Source: a bacterium (GTDB lineage: Bacteria > Hinthialibacterota > Hinthialibacteria > Hinthialibacterales > Hinthialibacteraceae). From it: a stretch of DNA of 64,000 nt. Of the stretch, positions 3,652 to 14,820 are shown piece by piece; positions within the stretch are counted from its first letter, which is position 1; the number at the start of each line of letters is the position of its first letter. The notes beneath the pieces were generated by a model. That model did not search any database and was not told the origin of the DNA. It worked only from the letters and a program-made list of their open reading frames with translations. The stretch spans positions 1,152,001 to 1,216,000 of the forward strand of contig CAXXMV010000008.1 of NCBI GenBank assembly GCA_963662285.2. Reading direction: 5' to 3'. The position numbers and the translations under genes are program-made.

Positions 3652-4040
3652 ATGAGTGATACCAGAATACAGGCTCGCCTCCGCCCCGTCGTTCGGGTGT
3701 TTGTCAGTTCGACGTTCAGCGACATGAAACATGAGCGGAACGCTTTGGAGGCCGATGCCTTTCCGAAACTGGAGCAGCTCTGTCAGCGTCATGGGTTTCA
3801 GTTCCAAGCCATCGATCTGCGCTGGGGCGTCTCGACTGAAGCTGGGCTGGATCACCGAACGATGCAGATTTGCTACGAGGAATTGCGCCGGTCGCAAGAG
3901 ATTTCCCCGGAACCAAATTTCCTTATCTTGCTGGGCAACCGCTATGGATGGCGGCCTTTGCCAGAAGCGATCTCACAGAAAGAATATGAAAATCTTCGCA
4001 ATGCAGCAATGGAATGCGATAAAGACGGCAAGGCTATCAT
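3652..4040 (+). pseudogene. 5' part (DUF4062 domain) of NWD copy 2, interrupted by IS21
   Basis: VRVFVSSTFSDMKHERNAL..IDLRWGV..LLGNRYGWRPLP; rejoins in frame with 6850 onward when the IS and one ATCAT are removed. Confidence 0.9.
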
Positions 4041-4225
4041 TGCAGATTTCGGGCCAAATCGGCACCTGAATTCGGAGTAAATCGGCACCCCATTTCGGAG
4101 TAATCGGCAGGGGGTGATTGTGAAGGAGATTTTCGGCGGAAAATTGATCGTTTGCAGCACTGGGTCAATCAAACCATAAGGGCATAGTAGGCTTCATGCC
4201 AATGCGCATAGATTGGGAGAAGCCG

Positions 4226-5767
4226 ATGCCGAAGGAGAGATTGTCCATGCGGAAAATCAAAGAGATACTACGATTAAAATGGGAGTGTGGTCTGAGTAAG
4301 AAGAAGATCGCTCAGAGTTGTGGCATGTCACGCAGCACTGTGGGGGATTATCTGATGCGAGCCGGAGCGGCAGGGCTATCCTGGCCGTTGCCGGAAGATC
4401 TGACTGAATCGGAATTGGAGAAGCGGCTCTTTTCCAGCCCCCCCGGACGTTCGCCCGTGCAACGCCCGTTACCCGATTGTGCGTTGATTCATAAAGAGAA
4501 TAAGAGGAAGGGCGTCACTCTGGCGCTGTTGTGGACGGAATATAAACAAGAACATCCGGATGGGTATCAATACACGCAATTTTGTGAGCATTACCGCCGC
4601 TGGAGGGATCGTCTCGATACCTGTCTGCGCCAAGAGCATAAGGCGGGGGAAAAATTGTTTGTGGATTACTGTGGACAGACCATCCCAGTGATCGACCGAA
4701 CGACAGGCGAAGAGAGAGAAGCGCAGATTTTCGTGGCGGCGTTGGGGGCCTCGAATTACACCTATGCGGAAGCGACGTGGACGCAGCAGCTCCCCGACTG
4801 GATTGGAGCGCATGCGCGGGCGTTGGAATATATCAACGGTTGTCCGGAGGTTCTGGTCCCCGACAATCTCCGAAGCGGCGTCAGCCAGGCCTGCCGGTAC
4901 GAACCCGACATCAACCCCACCTATCAAGCGTTTGCGGCCCATTATGGGATCGCGGTGATCCCGGCCCGTGTGCGAAAAGCCCGTGACAAAGCCAAGGTCG
5001 AAAAGAGCGTTCAACTGGTCGAGAACTGGATACTGGCCCGCTTGAGGAATCAAACATTCTTCAGTTTATCCGAACTCAATCAGGCCATTCGTGAGCATTT
5101 GCAGGCTCTCAACGACCATCCGTTTCAGAAATTGAACGAGACCCGCCGGTCCTTGTATGAATCCGTGGATCGTCCGGCGCTGCGTCCGCTCCCGGTCACG
5201 CCGTTCGAGTATGCGGACTGGAAGCAAGTGACGGTGGGGAACGATTACCATGTGGAAGTGGAGCGGCATTATTACAGCGTTCCGTCCACGCACGTCCGCC
5301 GGAAAGTCGAAATCCGCTATACCGCCCGGATCGTGGAGATTTATTGGCGGGGGGAACGGGTCGCCAGTCATATCCGCAACCATCGGCAAGGCGGTTGCAC
5401 CACGGTTCGCGAACATATGCCCAAAGAGCATCGCGAGGTTCTCGATTGGACGCCGGAGCGCCTGCAGGACGAGGCCGCGGGCATTGGCGCATTCACGGGA
5501 CGCCTGATCGAACGGGTGTTTGAGTGCAGTCGGCATCCGCTGCAAGGCGCACGAACGAGTTTGGGGATTCTGCGTCTCGGCCAGTCGTTTGGCCCGGACC
5601 GGTTGGAGCGCGCCTGTGAGCGTGCGTTGTTGATTCAAGCCCTCACCTACAAGAGCATTCGCTCGATTCTCAAGAAAGGATTGGACCGTCTTCCTCCACC
5701 CGGGCCGCCGCCTCCGGCGCTCACCATTCAGCATGACAACATACGCGGCGCTCAGTATTTCCACTAA
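4226..5767 (+). CDS. istA: IS21 transposase IstA
   Basis: N-terminal HTH, LFVDYCG, VPDNL, DKAKVE (DDE), C-terminal HDNIRGAQYFH; alternative start 4196. Confidence 0.95.
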   Translation: MPKERLSMRKIKEILRLKWECGLSKKKIAQSCGMSRSTVGDYLMRAGAAGLSWPLPEDLTESELEKRLFSSPPGRSPVQRPLPDCALIHKENKRKGVTLALLWTEYKQEHPDGYQYTQFCEHYRRWRDRLDTCLRQEHKAGEKLFVDYCGQTIPVIDRTTGEEREAQIFVAALGASNYTYAEATWTQQLPDWIGAHARALEYINGCPEVLVPDNLRSGVSQACRYEPDINPTYQAFAAHYGIAVIPARVRKARDKAKVEKSVQLVENWILARLRNQTFFSLSELNQAIREHLQALNDHPFQKLNETRRSLYESVDRPALRPLPVTPFEYADWKQVTVGNDYHVEVERHYYSVPSTHVRRKVEIRYTARIVEIYWRGERVASHIRNHRQGGCTTVREHMPKEHREVLDWTPERLQDEAAGIGAFTGRLIERVFECSRHPLQGARTSLGILRLGQSFGPDRLERACERALLIQALTYKSIRSILKKGLDRLPPPGPPPPALTIQHDNIRGAQYFH

Positions 5768-5813
5768 AGCCAGCAGCGATGGCTGCTTTTAAAACCTGGA
5801 AGGAGACGAATTC

Positions 5814-6629
5814 ATGCTTACACACCCTACTCTGGAAAAAATGAAAGCCATGCGGCTTTACGGCATGGCCAAGGCCTTTGAAGAACAATTACAGATGGCA
5901 GATATTGGCGAGCTCCGGTTTGAAGACCGGCTCGGACTGTTGATGGATCGCGAGGAAAGTGAAAAAAACAACCGCTTGCTGCAATCGCGATTGCGCAAAG
6001 CGAAACTGGCGCAGTCGGCCTGTGTGGAAAACCTCGATCTGGCGGCGCGGCGCGGATTGGATCGAACGCTCATCGCGAAACTCATCGCGTGCGATTGGAT
6101 TGGGGAGCGCTTGAACGTGATCGCAACGGGTCCCACCGGTACGGGGAAAAGTTATTTATCTTGTGCTCTGGGCCAAAAAGCCTGCCGGGAAAGATACACC
6201 GTGGAATACCATCGCGCTCCCCGGCTCTTTCCAGAACTTCACTTGGCGAAAGGCGATGGCCGTTACGAGGCGATTCTGCGCCGCCTGGCCAAAACCGATT
6301 TAGTCATCCTCGATGATTGGGGACTCTATGTCATGAACGATGAAGCGCGCCGCGATTGTTTGGAACTCCTCGAAGATCGTTGCGGCAAACGTTCGACTCT
6401 CGTTACCAGTCAAATTCCGATCCAGCACTGGCACGAAACCATTGGCGATCCGACTCTGGCCGATGCCATTCTGGACCGCCTCGTACATAACGCATACAAG
6501 ATCGAACTGAAAGGAGAATCCATGCGTAAACGGAACAAGAAACTGGAAACAGAAAACAGCGAAGATCATGAAATCAATGAACTCGAACCAAAATCAAGGA
6601 GCAATAAGGCTCAGAAGGGGTCAAAATAA
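5814..6629 (+). CDS. istB: IS21 helper ATPase IstB
   Basis: GPTGTGKS, LVILDDWG, ADAILDRLVHNA..GESMR. Confidence 0.95.
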   Translation: MLTHPTLEKMKAMRLYGMAKAFEEQLQMADIGELRFEDRLGLLMDREESEKNNRLLQSRLRKAKLAQSACVENLDLAARRGLDRTLIAKLIACDWIGERLNVIATGPTGTGKSYLSCALGQKACRERYTVEYHRAPRLFPELHLAKGDGRYEAILRRLAKTDLVILDDWGLYVMNDEARRDCLELLEDRCGKRSTLVTSQIPIQHWHETIGDPTLADAILDRLVHNAYKIELKGESMRKRNKKLETENSEDHEINELEPKSRSNKAQKGSK

Positions 6630-6849
6630 AATCAACAAAAGGGGGGTAACTCCATTCGGCCTACGGCCTCACTCCGTTACCCCCCTTTTAACGCGAAGAA
6701 TGATGAGAGTATGATGAAAATACGACCCAACGCTGCTGGGATATCAAAGGGTGTCGGAAGGCTCCGAATTAGGGTGCCGATTTACTCCGAAATGCCCTGC
6801 CGGTTTAATCCCGGATTCCCCTGTCGTTTTAACCGAAATCCGCAATCAT

Positions 6850-9800: not shown

Positions 9801-12184
9801 TTTCCGAGAGCTCCGTGTTTCTAATGGAGTTTTCCAGTGACGGGTCTTCGCTGGCTGTTGCCTCGTATGCCTCGTATGCCTCGTATGACTCCATGGTTCG
9901 ATATTTGGAAGTACCTTCTCTTGCTGAACAGCGGTCGATCCGGATCAACAACCTGTCATCGTGCGCGATGCTGCCTGAAGGTAATGTGCTTGCTGTTTGT
10001 GAAAAAGTGGTTGGGGAAGTTGGCTCACAAGTGATACTCTATGACGGTAGAACAGGGGTGATACGTGCAGTCGTGAACGACGGTACGTCAGCACAGTACG
10101 CAGAGCCACAATTTGTCGCATGCAGCGCTAATGGACAGCATGCTGCATTCATTCACAACCGAGGTGTGACTGTGATTGACCTAGATCGGGGCACGCGAGT
10201 CACGGCACCGATTCGCTTCGGCGCAACCGGATTCCCAAGCCTCTCAGCGGATGGCCGGCTCCTCGCGCAAACAGATTTGGACCAAGTAATGATTTGGCGC
10301 CTGGACTCATTAGAACCATCGATGATCCCAAGGCTCGAATGGGAGGTCAGAGAGGTTGCCCCTAGTTCGTGTGGCCAGTTCGTCGCGGTGGCTACTGAGT
10401 CAGATTTCAAAGGTTCCCTCAATGAATCCCCATTCGTCATACTGGAAACGGCTTCGGGTACCCTCATCAGTGAATGGCAACATCCCGGATCACGGCCAAT
10501 AGCATTTGATTGCATTGCCTGGTTTCATCACTCTGCGAAGGTTGCGTTTGCGAGTCACGGAGGAGGCCCAGTGTGGCTTTGGGGGCCTGATTGGACGAAC
10601 AACCTCTGCAGATTTGACCTAAGGGCTGCTTGCTTGAAGATATTGGTCTCTCCGAACGACGCTTGGATCGGTTGCACTTGCAAGGATGGGATGATCCAAC
10701 TAATCCAAGTTTGTCGCGCCGGGATGGCTGGTGTACGAACGCTTTTCACAAGTGAGCGCGGTGATCTTGAGGGCGGAGCAGATACGCCCCTAGCCTTCTC
10801 GTCGGACAGCATGCTGCTTGCGGCGTCCATCGACCATGCTGTTTACGTTAATGATTGGTTGGTGGAGGCAGACGAAAACCCAATTTACATATACCAAATT
10901 TTCAGTCCTGACGCGATAGTCATCCTAAAAGGTCACGCTGCCGCCGCCACGTGCCTAGCCTTCAACTCGGACGGTAGCCTTCTCGCATCAGCGGCACGGA
11001 ACAAAGAGGTTAAAATCTGGGATGTGGCAACTGGACGAGAAATTCACACTCTAGCGAATCATGCTGGCTCGGTCGATGCAGTGGCTTTCACCGACAACGG
11101 AAGACAAGTTGTCAGCGTGGATTCTCGACAACGCACTTACCTTTGGAATGTAGATAATGGCGAGTTAGTCCAACAATGGGCTGGGGCGTTTGACGCGGTG
11201 GAATTCGCAGTTTACCGCAGCCAGCCTCTTGGCGACAAACCAAGCCTCCTAGGGTACCACTTGGGATGTGAATTCCAAGTGGTTAATCCAGAGAATCTGG
11301 CGGTGAATGCAGCGCTGCCGACGCATTTCAACGACGCTTTGTTGTTTCTTCCTCAGACCCAGAGATTCATCCGATGGAATGCCGGCTTGTTAGAACTGTA
11401 TCGAGTTGGGGAGACTAAAAACCACACCAAGCCATCGGAATCCCCTTCCATATTCCGACCGGAAGTTCCTATTGACAAATTTCAACAGAGATGTCGGCTT
11501 TGTGGGCCGCACAACGGTAATTGCAGAATTTGCGGTGGGAAGAAATACATTGAGGCCCGTCACGATGTATCCCACTTGCGCTTCGAACTCCTAAGAAAAA
11601 AATGTCCTGCCTGTGATGGAACCGGGAAATGCTACATCTGTCATGCACGAAAGGCTGTCTCCGGGAAAGCTCCGCTTGTTGCTAATCCGACTGCTTTGCG
11701 CGGCCACCTGCGGCACCTACTCACCGACCAGCACTGGCAAAAGCATCTACAGACACAAAACGAATCAATCCGGGATTTACTGAATATCATAGGAACGGCA
11801 AAGAATCGGCACGAAGCCGCAGAATTACTCTCTCGATTGGATCTCCTGCAACTGTGGCTCTTGGGTCTTATAGGAGGTGCTCGAAGGACCGCGGGCTGGG
11901 ATCTCTACGATTTGCTAGGACGGCTCCGTCGACTCCAGGTACCGTTTCTTACTGTCCAAGAGGCGATGTTCTCCCTTGAAGAACTCGGGGTACTTCAACG
12001 TGAAATACGATGGCGCAATCGCGAGCCATACGAAGTCATGATCGTCAAACCCGAGAGTCACATCCGTTTTCTGTGCAATTTTCTCGCGGACATTCGGATA
12101 GACCTGAGTGAACCACCTAAGCCCAGTAGGCCCGTCGCATTGGATGACGGAGAAAAAACTGACGAGCAAGATTCCATTTGGTAA
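6850..12184 (+). pseudogene. 3' part of NWD copy 2: NACHT-WD40 with C-terminal Cys-rich zinc finger (open ORF 7037-12184)
   Basis: Frame open from the IS junction (KGIGDKSAEQILKEWYRLDEN); GDSGCGKT, LFLDALDQL, WD40 repeats, CRLC..CRICGG..CPACDGTGKCYIC; reconstructed gene about 1907 aa. Confidence 0.9.
9860..9886 (+). repeat. In-frame 9-bp tandem repeat (GCCTCGTAT)x3
   Basis: Encodes ASYASYASY within the WD40 region. Confidence 0.9.
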
Positions 12185-12198
12185 TCGCGAGACTTGGA

Positions 12199-12450
12199 AT
12201 GAAGGAGCGTGAATTCACATTTCGTGTTTTCGTCAGTTTGATCCCACGATTGCGGGACGATCTGAAGACCGAGCCAGATGCATTGCAGCGGGACGTGTTC
12301 CCTCGGCTGCGCGAGTACTGCCAGAAACACGGATGCCGGTTCCAGGCGATTGACCTGCGTTTCCGACATCGTACCGACCACGCAGTGTGTCGGGACTCCG
12401 CCGGACATAGGGCGTCAGCCAACGTTACGACTGGGTGTCCGAACCGCGCC
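12199..12450 (+). pseudogene. Second degenerate DUF4062 fragment
   Basis: MKEREFTFRVFVS..ALQRDVFPRLREYCQKHGCRFQAIDLR, later RYDWVSE in another frame. Confidence 0.7.
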
Positions 12451-12498
12451 ACTTCCGCGGAACAACCATTCAGATTGTGAACATAAGGATTTTTACCT

Positions 12499-12723
12499 AT
12501 GAATGATTCCAAACAACAGGCTCGCCTTCGCCCCGTCATTCGAGTGTTTGTCAGTTCAACGTTCAGCGACATGAAGCATGAGCGGAACGCTTTGGAGGCC
12601 GATGCCTTTCCGAAACTGGAGCAGCATTGTCAGCGCCAAGGGTTTCAGTTCCAGGCGATCGATCTGCGCTGGGGCGTCTCGACTGAAGTCGGCCTGGATC
12701 ACCGGACGATGCGGATCTGTTTT
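12499..12723 (+). pseudogene. 5' part of DUF4062 domain of NWD copy 3
   Basis: Near-identical to 3652-3876 up to ..HRTMRICF, then interrupted. Confidence 0.9.
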
Positions 12724-12827
12724 CCGTTTAGGGCAAATGTCCGGTAGTTAAAATTAGAAGGTGTCCCTTCCGAAAAACCATCCGATAACGGATGGAGAAG
12801 AAAAAAAACGGAAAGGAAGAGACACCC

Positions 12828-13700
12828 ATGATAAGTCCTACCCCAAACTCTCGTGAGAGTCAACAGGCTCGGCAGGAAAGTAAAACGCTAGCGCAGCAAC
12901 TGATCAATCGGGCGGTGGAAGGAACGGGGATGAGTCCCTGGGAAGCGGAAATCCTGGTGGACGTGGTTCAGGAGGTGTATTTTACCGAACCGGGAAATGC
13001 GCCCCTTCGTTCGGGTCAAATGCGCTACGACTGTGTGGCGGCGAACGAAGGAGTGGGCAAAGCGATCCGGGCGTGCCGGATGGTGAGCGTGGTCTTAACC
13101 CTGGTGGAAAAAGACGATTCGCAAGTAGTCGCCCAATTCAGCGTACAAGCCCTGCGCCAGGCGAGAATCCTGCGCCTTACGGAAGAAGCCTTCGAACAAG
13201 GAGGCGTGCTGACCCAGGAGGATTTGGCGCTGATTCTCAACAGCGACGTGCGCACCATTCGCCGGGATATTAGGGAACTGCGGGAGCGGAAAGGCATTCA
13301 CGCGCCCACCCGGGGCCAGGTGAAAGACATTGGCCCCGGCGTCACCCACAAAGAAGCGGCGCTCCAATTGTGGCTGGAAGGCCGCGAGCCGGTGGAGGTG
13401 GCCCGCCGCCTGAATCACACCCTGCACGCCGTGGAACGCTACATCCAGCATTTCAGCCGGGCGGCGTTTCTCCACCGCAAGGGATTCGCACCGCTGCAGA
13501 TTGCGCTGACGGTCGGTATTTCTTCGGCGGCGGCGCAGTTGTATCGGGACTTTTACGAACGATGCAAACGCAAGCGGGCGTATCAAGCGCGGTTGCGGGA
13601 GTTGGAGTGTATCGGCCTTCAGCACTATCAAGCGGAGGACGAGAAAAAAGGGGGACCTTTGCCCGGAAGGAATACGAAAAGCGGAAGGAGGCGGCCATGA
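12828..13700 (+). CDS. DUF1670-like protein A (HTH; candidate recombinase/transposase subunit)
   Basis: EAFEQGGVLTQEDLA..RTIRRDI..PTRGQVKDIGPGVTHK..NHTLHAVERY; purine-rich RBS before ATG 12828 (alternative start 12792). Confidence 0.8.
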   Translation: MISPTPNSRESQQARQESKTLAQQLINRAVEGTGMSPWEAEILVDVVQEVYFTEPGNAPLRSGQMRYDCVAANEGVGKAIRACRMVSVVLTLVEKDDSQVVAQFSVQALRQARILRLTEEAFEQGGVLTQEDLALILNSDVRTIRRDIRELRERKGIHAPTRGQVKDIGPGVTHKEAALQLWLEGREPVEVARRLNHTLHAVERYIQHFSRAAFLHRKGFAPLQIALTVGISSAAAQLYRDFYERCKRKRAYQARLRELECIGLQHYQAEDEKKGGPLPGRNTKSGRRRP

Positions 13701-14506
13701 AAACGCATCTCGATCACAACGCCGCCGCCTACGGCCCGGTGCAGTTCAAAACGTTCGCCGGGGCGTTGAACGCCTTCTTTCACCAGGAATGCCCTCAACT
13801 GGGCGGTCAGCGCACCCGACAGGTGCTGGTGCAGAGCGTCGTGGAGATGGTCGACCGATTCTATCCCGAAACCACGCACCTGCGTCCCGGTCAGATCGTT
13901 TGGACCACGGTGGATAAAAACGAGAAGGGCTCCTACGGCAAGAAGATTACTCAGAGCGAACTCACCAGCGTGGTGTTGGATCTGGTGCGGCCCGAAGACG
14001 CGGTGGAACGGGCCCGGGGCAAGCGCTTGCGGGACATAAAACGGGAAGCGGCGGCGCGCTTGTTCACGCAGGCGTACGAGCAGAACGGCTGCATGACCAA
14101 TGCCGAGGTGGCCATTCTCCTGAAAATCTCAGCGGCGACCGTGGGCAAATACATTCAGCAATGGGAAACGGAACACGACCGGTTGTTGCCCCGCCGGGGA
14201 ACGATTCACGATCTCGGTCCCACCCTGACCCACAAGAAAGTCATCATTCAAAAACTCTTTTTGGAAGGCAAGTCGGTGGGACAGGTGCAGAGGGAAACCT
14301 ATCATAGTCCGGAAGCCATTCATCGCTATATCCAGACATTTCGACAAGTCCTCTTATGTCGCCAGAAAGGATTCTCGAATGAAGAAATCTCCTTCGCCCT
14401 CAAAATCAGCAAGCGGTTGGCAGTCGAGTACCAATCTCTGATGGATGAGATGATCCATGAATATCAGTCTCTGGAATATCTCCTGAACCTTGATATTCCT
14501 GCGTAA
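13697..14506 (+). CDS. DUF1670-like protein B
   Basis: QAYEQNGCMTNAEVA..LPRRGTIHDLGPTLTHK..YHSPEAIHRY; ATGA overlap with gene A, RBS AGGAGG. Confidence 0.8.
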   Translation: MKTHLDHNAAAYGPVQFKTFAGALNAFFHQECPQLGGQRTRQVLVQSVVEMVDRFYPETTHLRPGQIVWTTVDKNEKGSYGKKITQSELTSVVLDLVRPEDAVERARGKRLRDIKREAAARLFTQAYEQNGCMTNAEVAILLKISAATVGKYIQQWETEHDRLLPRRGTIHDLGPTLTHKKVIIQKLFLEGKSVGQVQRETYHSPEAIHRYIQTFRQVLLCRQKGFSNEEISFALKISKRLAVEYQSLMDEMIHEYQSLEYLLNLDIPA

Positions 14507-14571
14507 TCTTGATATTCAATTGATGATTCGATGGAAGAGGACACCTTGCACGCACCGGACATAAACCCTTA

Positions 14572-14820
14572 TTTGACAAACTGCGGCGAGCGCAGGAGAT
14601 CTCTCCCAAGCCCAATTTTCTCATCCTGCTGGGCAACCGCTATGGCTGGCGGCCCCTGCCTGAAGAGATTTCCGTGGAGGAGTTCCGCACACTGGAGCAT
14701 GCCGCCGCGCAGATACCCGGCGGTGCCGACAAGTCAGCGGTCTCGGTTCTGTGGGAATGGTATCGTGAGGATACGAACGCCGTTCCGCCCGTCTATCCTA
14801 CCGCTCAGTCGATTGAGTAA
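14572..14820 (+). pseudogene. Continuation of NWD copy 3 DUF4062 region, truncated
   Basis: FDKLRRAQEISPKPNFLILLGNRYGWRPLPEEIS..WEWYREDTNAVPPVY, then homology is lost and a stop follows; no NACHT/WD40 downstream. Confidence 0.85.

Follow-up and report, generated by a model that had tools for sequence, protein, structure and literature searches.

DUF1670 protein pairs as the candidate mobilisation machinery of compact insertion elements without a recognisable transposase

What moves a mobile element whose only two genes resemble no known transposase? The question is raised by a 64,000-nucleotide stretch of a bacterial genome of the Hinthialibacterota (contig CAXXMV010000008.1, positions 1,152,001 to 1,216,000; hereafter the window), in which a gene of the DUF4062 type (STAND NTPase/WD40 family) is split by an insert carrying two genes, A and B, that both encode DUF1670 proteins. 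We consider it probable that this insert is a copy of an autonomous insertion sequence (IS) family of 1.85-1.94 kb, in which a heteromer of the two DUF1670 proteins binds the element ends and drives transposition. Comparisons of sequences and of predicted structures establish the mobility of the family, its ends, a 2-bp flank, an orientation rule, the linkage of A and B, purifying selection on both, and the lack of a recognisable transposase fold. That the pair constitutes the mobilisation machinery is well supported indirectly, because the two genes are constantly linked, evolve under purifying selection and also occur in fused forms, and because the genome holds no partner element with the same ends.

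The boundaries of the insert were fixed by aligning its two flanks separately to the N-terminal part of a neighbouring, at this site uninterrupted, paralogue (3652..4080, forward strand). The left flank (12499-12719) is identical to paralogue positions 3652-3872 at 199 of 221 nucleotides, and the right flank (14579-14672) to 3881-3974 at 74 of 94, both without gaps. Position 12723 lies opposite 3876 and position 14575 opposite 3877, between which the site equivalent to the insertion falls; since the flank alignments abut there without a gap, the extra DNA is exactly 12724-14574, 1851 bp. With the insert removed, the protein reads HRTMRICF directly followed by DKLRRAQ, and the paralogue protein reads HRTMQICYEELRRSQ. 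The earlier note on this DNA, made from the sequence alone, had described an insert of about 1.85 kb inside a gene, whose excision (12724-14574) would restore a frame collinear with the paralogue at 3652, and the collinearity proves base-exact. The 5′ part of the interrupted gene (12499..12723, forward strand) is open up to the codon TTT, has a weak DUF4062 match and shares 90% nucleotide identity with 3652-3872, and its 3′ continuation (14575..14820, forward strand) starts with DKLRRAQEISPKPNF and ends at the stop codon 14818-14820, the remainder of the gene being missing. The interrupted gene is thus a remnant of about 155 codons, against more than 1700 amino acids for the paralogue protein. 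Paralogue alignment and the end motifs of the family together delimit the element proper to 12724..14572 (1849 bp, forward strand), flanked by one TT at 12722..12723 and another at 14573..14574.

Relatives of the window element are numerous, and their distribution is that of a mobile family. A word-indexed search retrieved 992 relatives of protein A at E≤1e-3, and a profile search retrieved 2171 clusters at 50% identity at that threshold and 280 at E≤1e-30. Among the matches listed, the longest contig is no more than 2.5 kb for 98 of 120 clusters, and 47 of the 80 metagenome loci we collected are likewise no longer than 2.5 kb; assemblers leave such short contigs when a repeat of about 1.9 kb is present in many copies. 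The hosts include organisms behind contigs titled Nitrospirae, Sterolibacterium and Rhodospirillaceae, the small phylum of the window, and Methanosarcina acetivorans (a control genome). All-against-all BLASTN, the check proposed at the outset for copies with the same ends in different surroundings, yielded seven sets of 85-99.8% identical copies in which similarity stops abruptly at the same two points and the flanks differ (L013/L014/L015, at 99.8% identity; L005/L032/L006; L057/L058; L065/L074; L070/L071; L026/L028/L046; L024/L027). On these sequence comparisons the elements that carry the DUF1670 pair are shown to be mobile. Metagenome contigs may be chimeric at repeats, as with L020 and L021, which have a common left flank and differing right flanks. 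Three metagenome-assembled genomes (G035-G037) contain one collapsed contig apiece, from which copy number is not readable.

The two genes travel together. An orthologue of B follows A wherever the contig is long enough among the 80 metagenome loci, and the ATGA overlap of the two reading frames is kept in 52 of the 66 loci in which both open reading frames (ORFs) could be delimited, the other 14 having small spacers or being truncated or mis-paired. The ratio of nonsynonymous to synonymous substitution rates (dN/dS) was 0.00-0.35 in all 16 computable A or B comparisons between near-identical copies (two A comparisons, with ORFs of unequal length, were left out), and both genes are therefore under purifying selection. 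Complete elements (n=49) measure 1845-1942 bp without the TT, with a median of 1874 bp; this length between conserved ends leaves no room for a gene beyond A and B, so that an additional integrase or transposase, whose presence would have marked the window copy as a deletion derivative, is by length excluded from all 49 complete relatives. At four loci (L006, L041, L044, L053) the best B match falls on gene A itself and no separate B was found: the L041 and L044 contigs stop some 100 bp or less from A, and B may lie beyond them, and those of L006 and L053 continue past A, the latter with a 545-amino-acid ORF on the other strand that has no Pfam match.

The ends of the element are inverted but non-equivalent. 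On the forward strand of the window, the left end (12724..12772) consists of CCG and then TTTAGGGCAAATGTCCGGTA, with an outer site GGGCAAATGTCC at 12731-12742 and an inner site AAGGTGTCC at 12758-12766, and the right end (14534..14572) holds an inner site GGACACCTT at 14539-14547, an outer site GGACATAAACCC at 14557-14568 and a terminal TTAT at 14569-14572. The two blocks of imperfect inverted terminal repeats that had been proposed for the insert are both present: an outer block pairing 12730-12745 with 14554-14569 (16 nt, 81% complementary) and an inner block pairing AAGGTGTCC with GGACACCTT, which contains the inner copies of a partly palindromic site (GGTGTCC at 12760-12766 and GGACACC at 14539-14545). 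Outer and inner sites are spaced 29 bp apart at the left end and 18 bp apart at the right, and the left end is three terminal bases longer. Family left ends start ACGATTAGGGCAnnTGTCC and right ends finish GGACAnnTGCCCTTAT. With a consensus built from the near-identical copy sets and a threshold of 15 matches in 22, we recognised 73 left and 57 right ends among 84 loci, many positions being invariant or almost so (62 distinct left and 48 distinct right sequences), and the ends are accordingly conserved among homologues, a point on which the first proposal could have failed. A change of protein subfamily goes with a change of end motif, as in the CT-flanked group L079-L084. One subfamily (L025, L030, L034, L043, L055, L077) has a longer left end, in which the terminal motif and an inverted repeat of itself make up a 34-nt palindrome, after which the right end appears in near-perfect inverted form (terminal inverted repeat of 43-59 nt); the inner part, read on the opposite strand, resembles a junction of right end, TT and left end.

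The flanks of the family define both the length of the repeated dinucleotide and the orientation of the element. The earlier note had reported TTT on both sides of the insert, and TTT does stand at 12721-12723 and at 14572-14574; the comparison of complete insertions trims the flanking repeat itself to a 2-bp TT, and against the paralogue one TT(T) is extra at the filled site. The 2-nt flanks are identical on both sides in 47 of 49 distinct complete insertions. The left dinucleotide is TT in 43 of these, CT in three, TA in two (L020 and L021, with their common left flank), TC in one and AA in none, and the element thus has a fixed orientation relative to the T-strand. Rows other than TT mostly covary (TA/TA, TC/TC and twice CT/CT), the two mismatches being CT/CA and TT/TA. 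Target bias extends beyond the dinucleotide: 44 of 64 sequences have A at -4 and 39 of 64 have T at -3, and downstream 41 of 53 have A or T four bases past the dinucleotide and 40 of 53 have T five bases past it. Since positions -3 and -4 vary between near-identical copies, these bases belong to the target and not to the element. By our comparison the four biased positions coincide with bases of the right-end-TT-left-end junction, a likeness that is suggestive only. Longer duplications were considered and rejected: one of 3 bp fits only 28 of 49 insertions, and for one of 5 bp (TT+ACG) the three bases after the right-hand TT proved random. A hairpin or palindromic target is not the general rule, being found only for L024 and L027 (2 of 38, against a control mean of 0.08). 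In those two loci (L024:93-2017 and L027:284-2208) the element sits in the loop of a palindrome of about 75 bp that is common to both and has differing outer flanks, the result either of repeated targeting of a small palindromic repeat or of a composite moving as a unit.

For gene A (12828..13700, forward strand; 290 amino acids) the most likely start is 12828, as in all close homologues, and not the alternative ATG at 12792. Gene B (13697..14506, forward strand; 269 amino acids) begins with an ATG that overlaps the TGA of A (ATGA, 13697-13700). Both proteins match PF07900 (DUF1670) over their full length, with E-values of 3.6e-58 (197 bits) and 4.8e-57 (193 bits) against a gathering cut-off of 25 bits, and they align to each other with 31% identity and an hhalign profile-profile probability of 99.9; the reading of the pair as translationally coupled DUF1670 paralogues is thereby borne out. 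AlphaFold models (predicted local distance difference test, pLDDT, 74.8 for A and 81.5 for B) are helical, with one two-strand N-terminal hairpin and three units resembling helix-turn-helix (HTH) folds. The layout comprises a small N-terminal helical/beta-hairpin domain, a central winged helix like those of DeoR and HTH_11, an Arg-Gly linker and two further HTH motifs, and Pfam HTH families (HTH_11, Crp, GerE, sigma-70 r4, HTH_23/24, and also HTH_28 and HTH_29) match below threshold. Among 106 A-like representatives and window A (107 sequences; median 35% identity to window A), the residues R110, R116, A121, Q124, D132, T143, R162, G169, H174, H197, Y205 and F209 of A are kept in at least 90%, and A and B have the motifs RG...D-GP..[ST]H[KR] and H..A..RY in common. 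Database names of A relatives range over 'hypothetical protein', 'biotin operon repressor', 'CsgD family regulator' and 'DUF1670'.

The two units also occur fused in nature, as A-B (about 530 amino acids), as a divergent unit X joined to A (about 500-530 amino acids) and as three units X-A-B (930-952 amino acids). The three-unit forms are P0134, P0135, P0142 and P0147, and two-unit forms of 500-546 amino acids include P0156, P0158 and P0167. Ten long DUF1670 forms that were scanned contain only DUF1670 or HTH matches and no other domain, and a search for longer homologues found only one, of 528 amino acids, which consists of two DUF1670 units; therefore no fusion to a catalytic domain emerged from it. 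A predicted complex of A with B scored 0.47 and the best of three controls 0.00, on alignments that we built ourselves. The mark applied is reached by 58 of 80 solved complexes and by 2 of 110 mismatched pairs, a score of 0.60 or less being found for only 7 of the 80 solved complexes and for both mismatched pairs that passed. The runs agreed on at least 63% of contacts, with partner pLDDT of at least 69, and the prediction lends weak support to an A-B complex.

NCBIfam returned nothing above cut-off for A or B, its IS21 model giving a sub-threshold, HTH-only match of 18 bits against a cut-off of 160. The best weak Foldseek matches are multi-winged-helix regulators (MgaSpn, MntR/DtxR) and sigma and TFIIB-type factors, with Pax paired domains far lower; the ESM Atlas gave only HTH clusters, all scoring below 0.9, and PHROGs and PADLOC only weak HTH-level matches. 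Rfam found nothing at E≤1 in 12600-14700, a promoter and terminator scan did not rise above shuffled sequence, and inspection of stop-to-stop frames in 22 loci disclosed no third conserved gene. Flanking ORFs of the long loci inspected are unrelated host genes with no common transposase: the ten scanned encode glycoside hydrolases, a penicillin amidase, a permease and one IS110 transposase, and five have no Pfam match. That IS110-family gene (L058:3916-5415), about 500 bp upstream of the element, is the sole transposase in the flanks examined and is probably a mere neighbouring IS. Cryptic active sites were also considered. A tyrosine-recombinase signature (R...H...H...Y) was rejected because its residues lie inside the DeoR/HTH_11-type winged helix and a standard HTH, with no integrase fold, and HKD/PLD-like and HUH motifs were rejected by reading the sequence only. 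No A relative was found by tblastn among 72,556 plasmid records, and none of 58 pattern matches in viral contigs was a relative.

Taken as sequence, the insert has the anatomy of a self-contained transposon: its two inverted ends are unlike and hold several putative binding sites each, the 2-bp flank is fixed, and the two co-translated genes encode paralogous DNA-binding proteins. We propose that A and B would form a hetero-oligomer, which would bind repeated, partly palindromic 12-bp sites (GGGCAnnTGTCC), at least two per end and differently spaced on the left and the right, and so pair the two unlike ends. Insertion would then take place at a short T-rich target, W-T-TT-N3-W-T, always in the same orientation, leaving TT on both sides either as the duplication from a 2-bp staggered cut or as a 2-bp crossover core common to element and target. 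Both a 2-nt staggered cut with repair and a core of the kind used by site-specific recombinases fit the data, and the asymmetry of target and ends fits an asymmetric complex in which A is not equal to B. Cutting and joining would, in the reading we prefer, be performed by A and B themselves and not by a host enzyme.

Several observations weigh against the account of an autonomous family driven by A and B. Pfam and NCBIfam detect no DDE, HUH, serine, tyrosine or DEDD module and no other catalytic domain in A or B, a sequence-profile search of the Protein Data Bank (PDB) gave no match, and Foldseek against the PDB gave none at E≤1e-3 for either model; the absence of DDE, HUH, serine-recombinase and DEDD motifs that the earlier note had reported is upheld by Pfam, NCBIfam and Foldseek alike. 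Models of moderate confidence might fail to reveal an active site that is small or novel. The most conserved polar residues, R162, H174, H197 and Y205 among them, lie in or beside HTH motifs and may merely contact DNA. The element is present as a single copy in its 7.29-Mb genome (8 contigs, 92.5% complete), and its right outer site carries T at two positions at which the 48 distinct right ends mostly show C (46 of them) and A (41 of them), respectively; being off near-invariant positions, the window copy may no longer be mobile and is therefore uninformative on current activity. Contigs of the sequencing runs contain no circle junction and no true empty site, and they record neither transposition nor a polymorphism between empty and filled sites. 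The flanks were de-duplicated by identity only, so that some of the insertions counted may be inherited and not independent. Finally, tandem pairs of small genes in Nitrospirota occupy a block of about 1.3 kb with partly conserved neighbours, in a partly syntenic chromosomal setting, and the DUF1670 core is therefore not always tied to mobility.

These mini pairs were found in 15 of 401 sampled Nitrospirota genomes (L094-L121; G068, G077 and G155 among them). They match only DUF1670 positions ~58-145, covering the hairpin and first winged helix, as in the overlapping L094 pair of 96 and 118 amino acids, the only pair examined from end to end, and look like a non-mobile version of the A-B pair.

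If A and B do the chemistry, they might constitute a new class of transposase or recombinase on an HTH scaffold, unrelated to the DDE, HUH, serine, tyrosine, DEDD and Cas1 enzymes, that cuts with a 2-nt stagger at TT and inserts in one orientation; we advance this class tentatively, as a serious possibility that falls short of even likelihood. The protein might, for instance, become covalently joined to DNA through a conserved Tyr, Ser/Thr or His within or adjoining an HTH, for which the candidate residues in A are R162, D167, S/T173-H174, H197 and Y205, with the same positions conserved in B. A remote analogy is offered by topoisomerase VI and Spo11, which carry a catalytic tyrosine on a winged-helix domain and cut with a 2-nt stagger.

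The competing account that survives best, unlikely in our estimation, is that A and B serve as end-binding and synapsis proteins without catalysis and rely for cutting and joining on a nuclease, recombinase or topoisomerase of the host, in the way that Xer-dependent elements use XerCD. The detection of HTH-type domains alone in both proteins speaks for this account; the fixed dinucleotide and orientation specificity are closer to site-specific recombination than to random DDE transposition, and the match of the four biased target positions outside TT to the junction of right and left ends points the same way. However, hosts as diverse as Nitrospirae, Sterolibacterium, Rhodospirillaceae, the phylum of the window and Methanosarcina acetivorans would require a nearly universal recruited enzyme, self-contained transpososomes typically have inverted ends with several binding sites, and no candidate host partner was identified.

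We regard as improbable a second account, in which a conventional transposase encoded elsewhere, such as an IS630-like one, acts on the ends in trans and the DUF1670 pair is a passenger, for example of regulators. A and B do resemble transcription regulators, their sub-threshold matches to HTH_23, HTH_28 and HTH_29 are to families common in the N-termini of IS630- and IS3-type transposases, IS630-like transposases also give a 2-bp duplication, and a mini pair exists in an apparently chromosomal context. Yet no other sequence within three mismatches of either end was found in the 7.29-Mb, 92.5%-complete genome, which therefore holds no partner element with the same ends, and the complete elements that were inspected contain no genes but A and B. 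Purifying selection on both genes within the element, the covariation of end motifs with protein subfamilies (as in L079-L084), a fixed non-palindromic TT where IS630 uses a palindromic TA, and the finding of a single IS110 gene, near L058, as the only transposase in the flanks examined also argue against this account. That the insert is no transposon at all, being the remnant of a larger integrated element or a patch of gene conversion or recombination with end repeats that are chance or A-B operators, might be suggested by its single copy in the genome and by surroundings littered with paralogue fragments and another IS, and is so improbable as to be set aside, given base-exact boundaries against the paralogue and the recurrence of these boundaries, of the ends and of the flanking dinucleotide across dozens of unrelated contexts.

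PF07900 is a family without functional annotation, and as far as our searches go its link to a mobile element bounded by terminal repeats is not in print: a word search for 'DUF1670' and 'PF07900' found neither in about 8.4 million searchable papers and preprints, supplements, in which some IS catalogues reside, lying outside its scope. On NCBIfam and literature word searches the element matches no known IS family model. To our knowledge, every described prokaryotic insertion sequence family has been assigned to one of a few catalytic classes, and there is a substantial chance that the enzyme of the DUF1670 elements is categorically new. Here a large family, found in bacteria and at least one archaeon and comprising more than 2000 protein clusters at 50% identity, has the anatomy of a transposon without a recognised enzyme. 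Were the pair itself to perform the chemistry, it would represent a new enzyme class in DNA transposition and a compact, orientation-specific, two-protein integration system; were a host enzyme recruited, the elements would be molecular parasites of a new sort. In both cases a 'domain of unknown function' would gain a function and many orphan 2-kb metagenome contigs an explanation, and IS-annotation pipelines built on transposase models overlook the whole family.

In the surroundings of the element, the paralogue used as the uninterrupted reference carries, farther downstream, an insertion of its own, an IS21-type element (4081-6832) with IstA at 4196-5767 (rve and Mu-transpos_C_2 domains) and IstB at 5814-6629 (IstB_IS21); the paralogue frame comprises the N-terminus at 3652-4080, resumes at about 6833 and runs to 12184. 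With an IS21-type element in one paralogue and the DUF1670 element in the other, neighbouring paralogues have therefore been struck by different ISs. A short ORF directly upstream of the interrupted gene (12178-12480) encodes a degenerate DUF4062-like N-terminus (FRVFVS…QAIDLRF) and is a further paralogue fragment in what is a graveyard of the DUF4062-type gene family. Among 34 other genomes of the phylum, two have a DUF1670 match, one of them above cut-off. The sequencing run that best matches the window (X1) contains element pieces at lower depth that are 93-95% identical, including a contig in which another left flank starts at 12721, and these diverged pieces therefore represent a second copy or strain in the sample, outside the assembled genome; a 94%-identical relative in run X3 also begins at 12721. 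A joint from 12716 to 14591 in run X4 was rejected as an empty site, the 23 intervening letters being the paralogue's own sequence.

Compared with known systems, the family displays the features of a generic insertion sequence, namely terminal inverted ends, differing flanks and a short direct repeat at the junctions; as a candidate transposase of its own it encodes only A and B, in which no known transposase domain is detected. It differs from miniature inverted-repeat and other non-autonomous elements in having two conserved genes under purifying selection and no same-end partner in the genome. Unlike IS200/IS605 elements, it has no Y1_Tnp (HUH Y1) match and possesses both inverted ends and a flanking repeat, and unlike tyrosine recombinase elements it has no Phage_integrase domain (R-K-H-R-H/W-Y) and no integrase among its Foldseek matches. 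IS110/IS1111 elements are similar in orientation-specific insertion at a short shared core dinucleotide, whereas A and B have no DEDD_Tnp_IS110 or Transposase_20 domain, and the DUF1670 element has conserved inverted ends, non-coding ends of only about 104 and 66 nt and no Rfam family match, in comparison with the bridge or seek RNA of IS110 (PMC11187229). IS21, a real representative of which lies 6 kb upstream in the window, likewise has two adjacent co-translated genes; however, its IstA carries an rve DDE domain and its IstB an AAA+ ATPase, and A and B are paralogous and have neither. In IS607 and the serine integrases, identical 2-bp flanks and strict orientation are expected of a 2-bp crossover core, and the target of the DUF1670 element partly resembles its end-to-end junction as well; the differences are that A and B lack a resolvase catalytic domain, that no serine-recombinase fold appears among the Foldseek matches, and that the DUF1670 element has clear terminal inverted repeats, which IS607 does not. 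From IS630/Tc1-mariner elements the family is set apart by the lack of a DDE/RNase-H-like domain in its helical models (which have only the two-strand hairpin), by two paralogous proteins in place of one, by left and right ends that differ in length and site spacing, and by a flank of TT in 43 of 49 insertions, in one orientation, where TA accounts for 2 of 49. With those same elements it has in common a compact form, inverted ends with more than one protein-binding site each, a 2-bp flank at a fixed dinucleotide, and consecutive HTH motifs with a basic Arg-Gly linker, together with the sub-threshold HTH_23/28/29 and non-significant Pax paired-domain matches.

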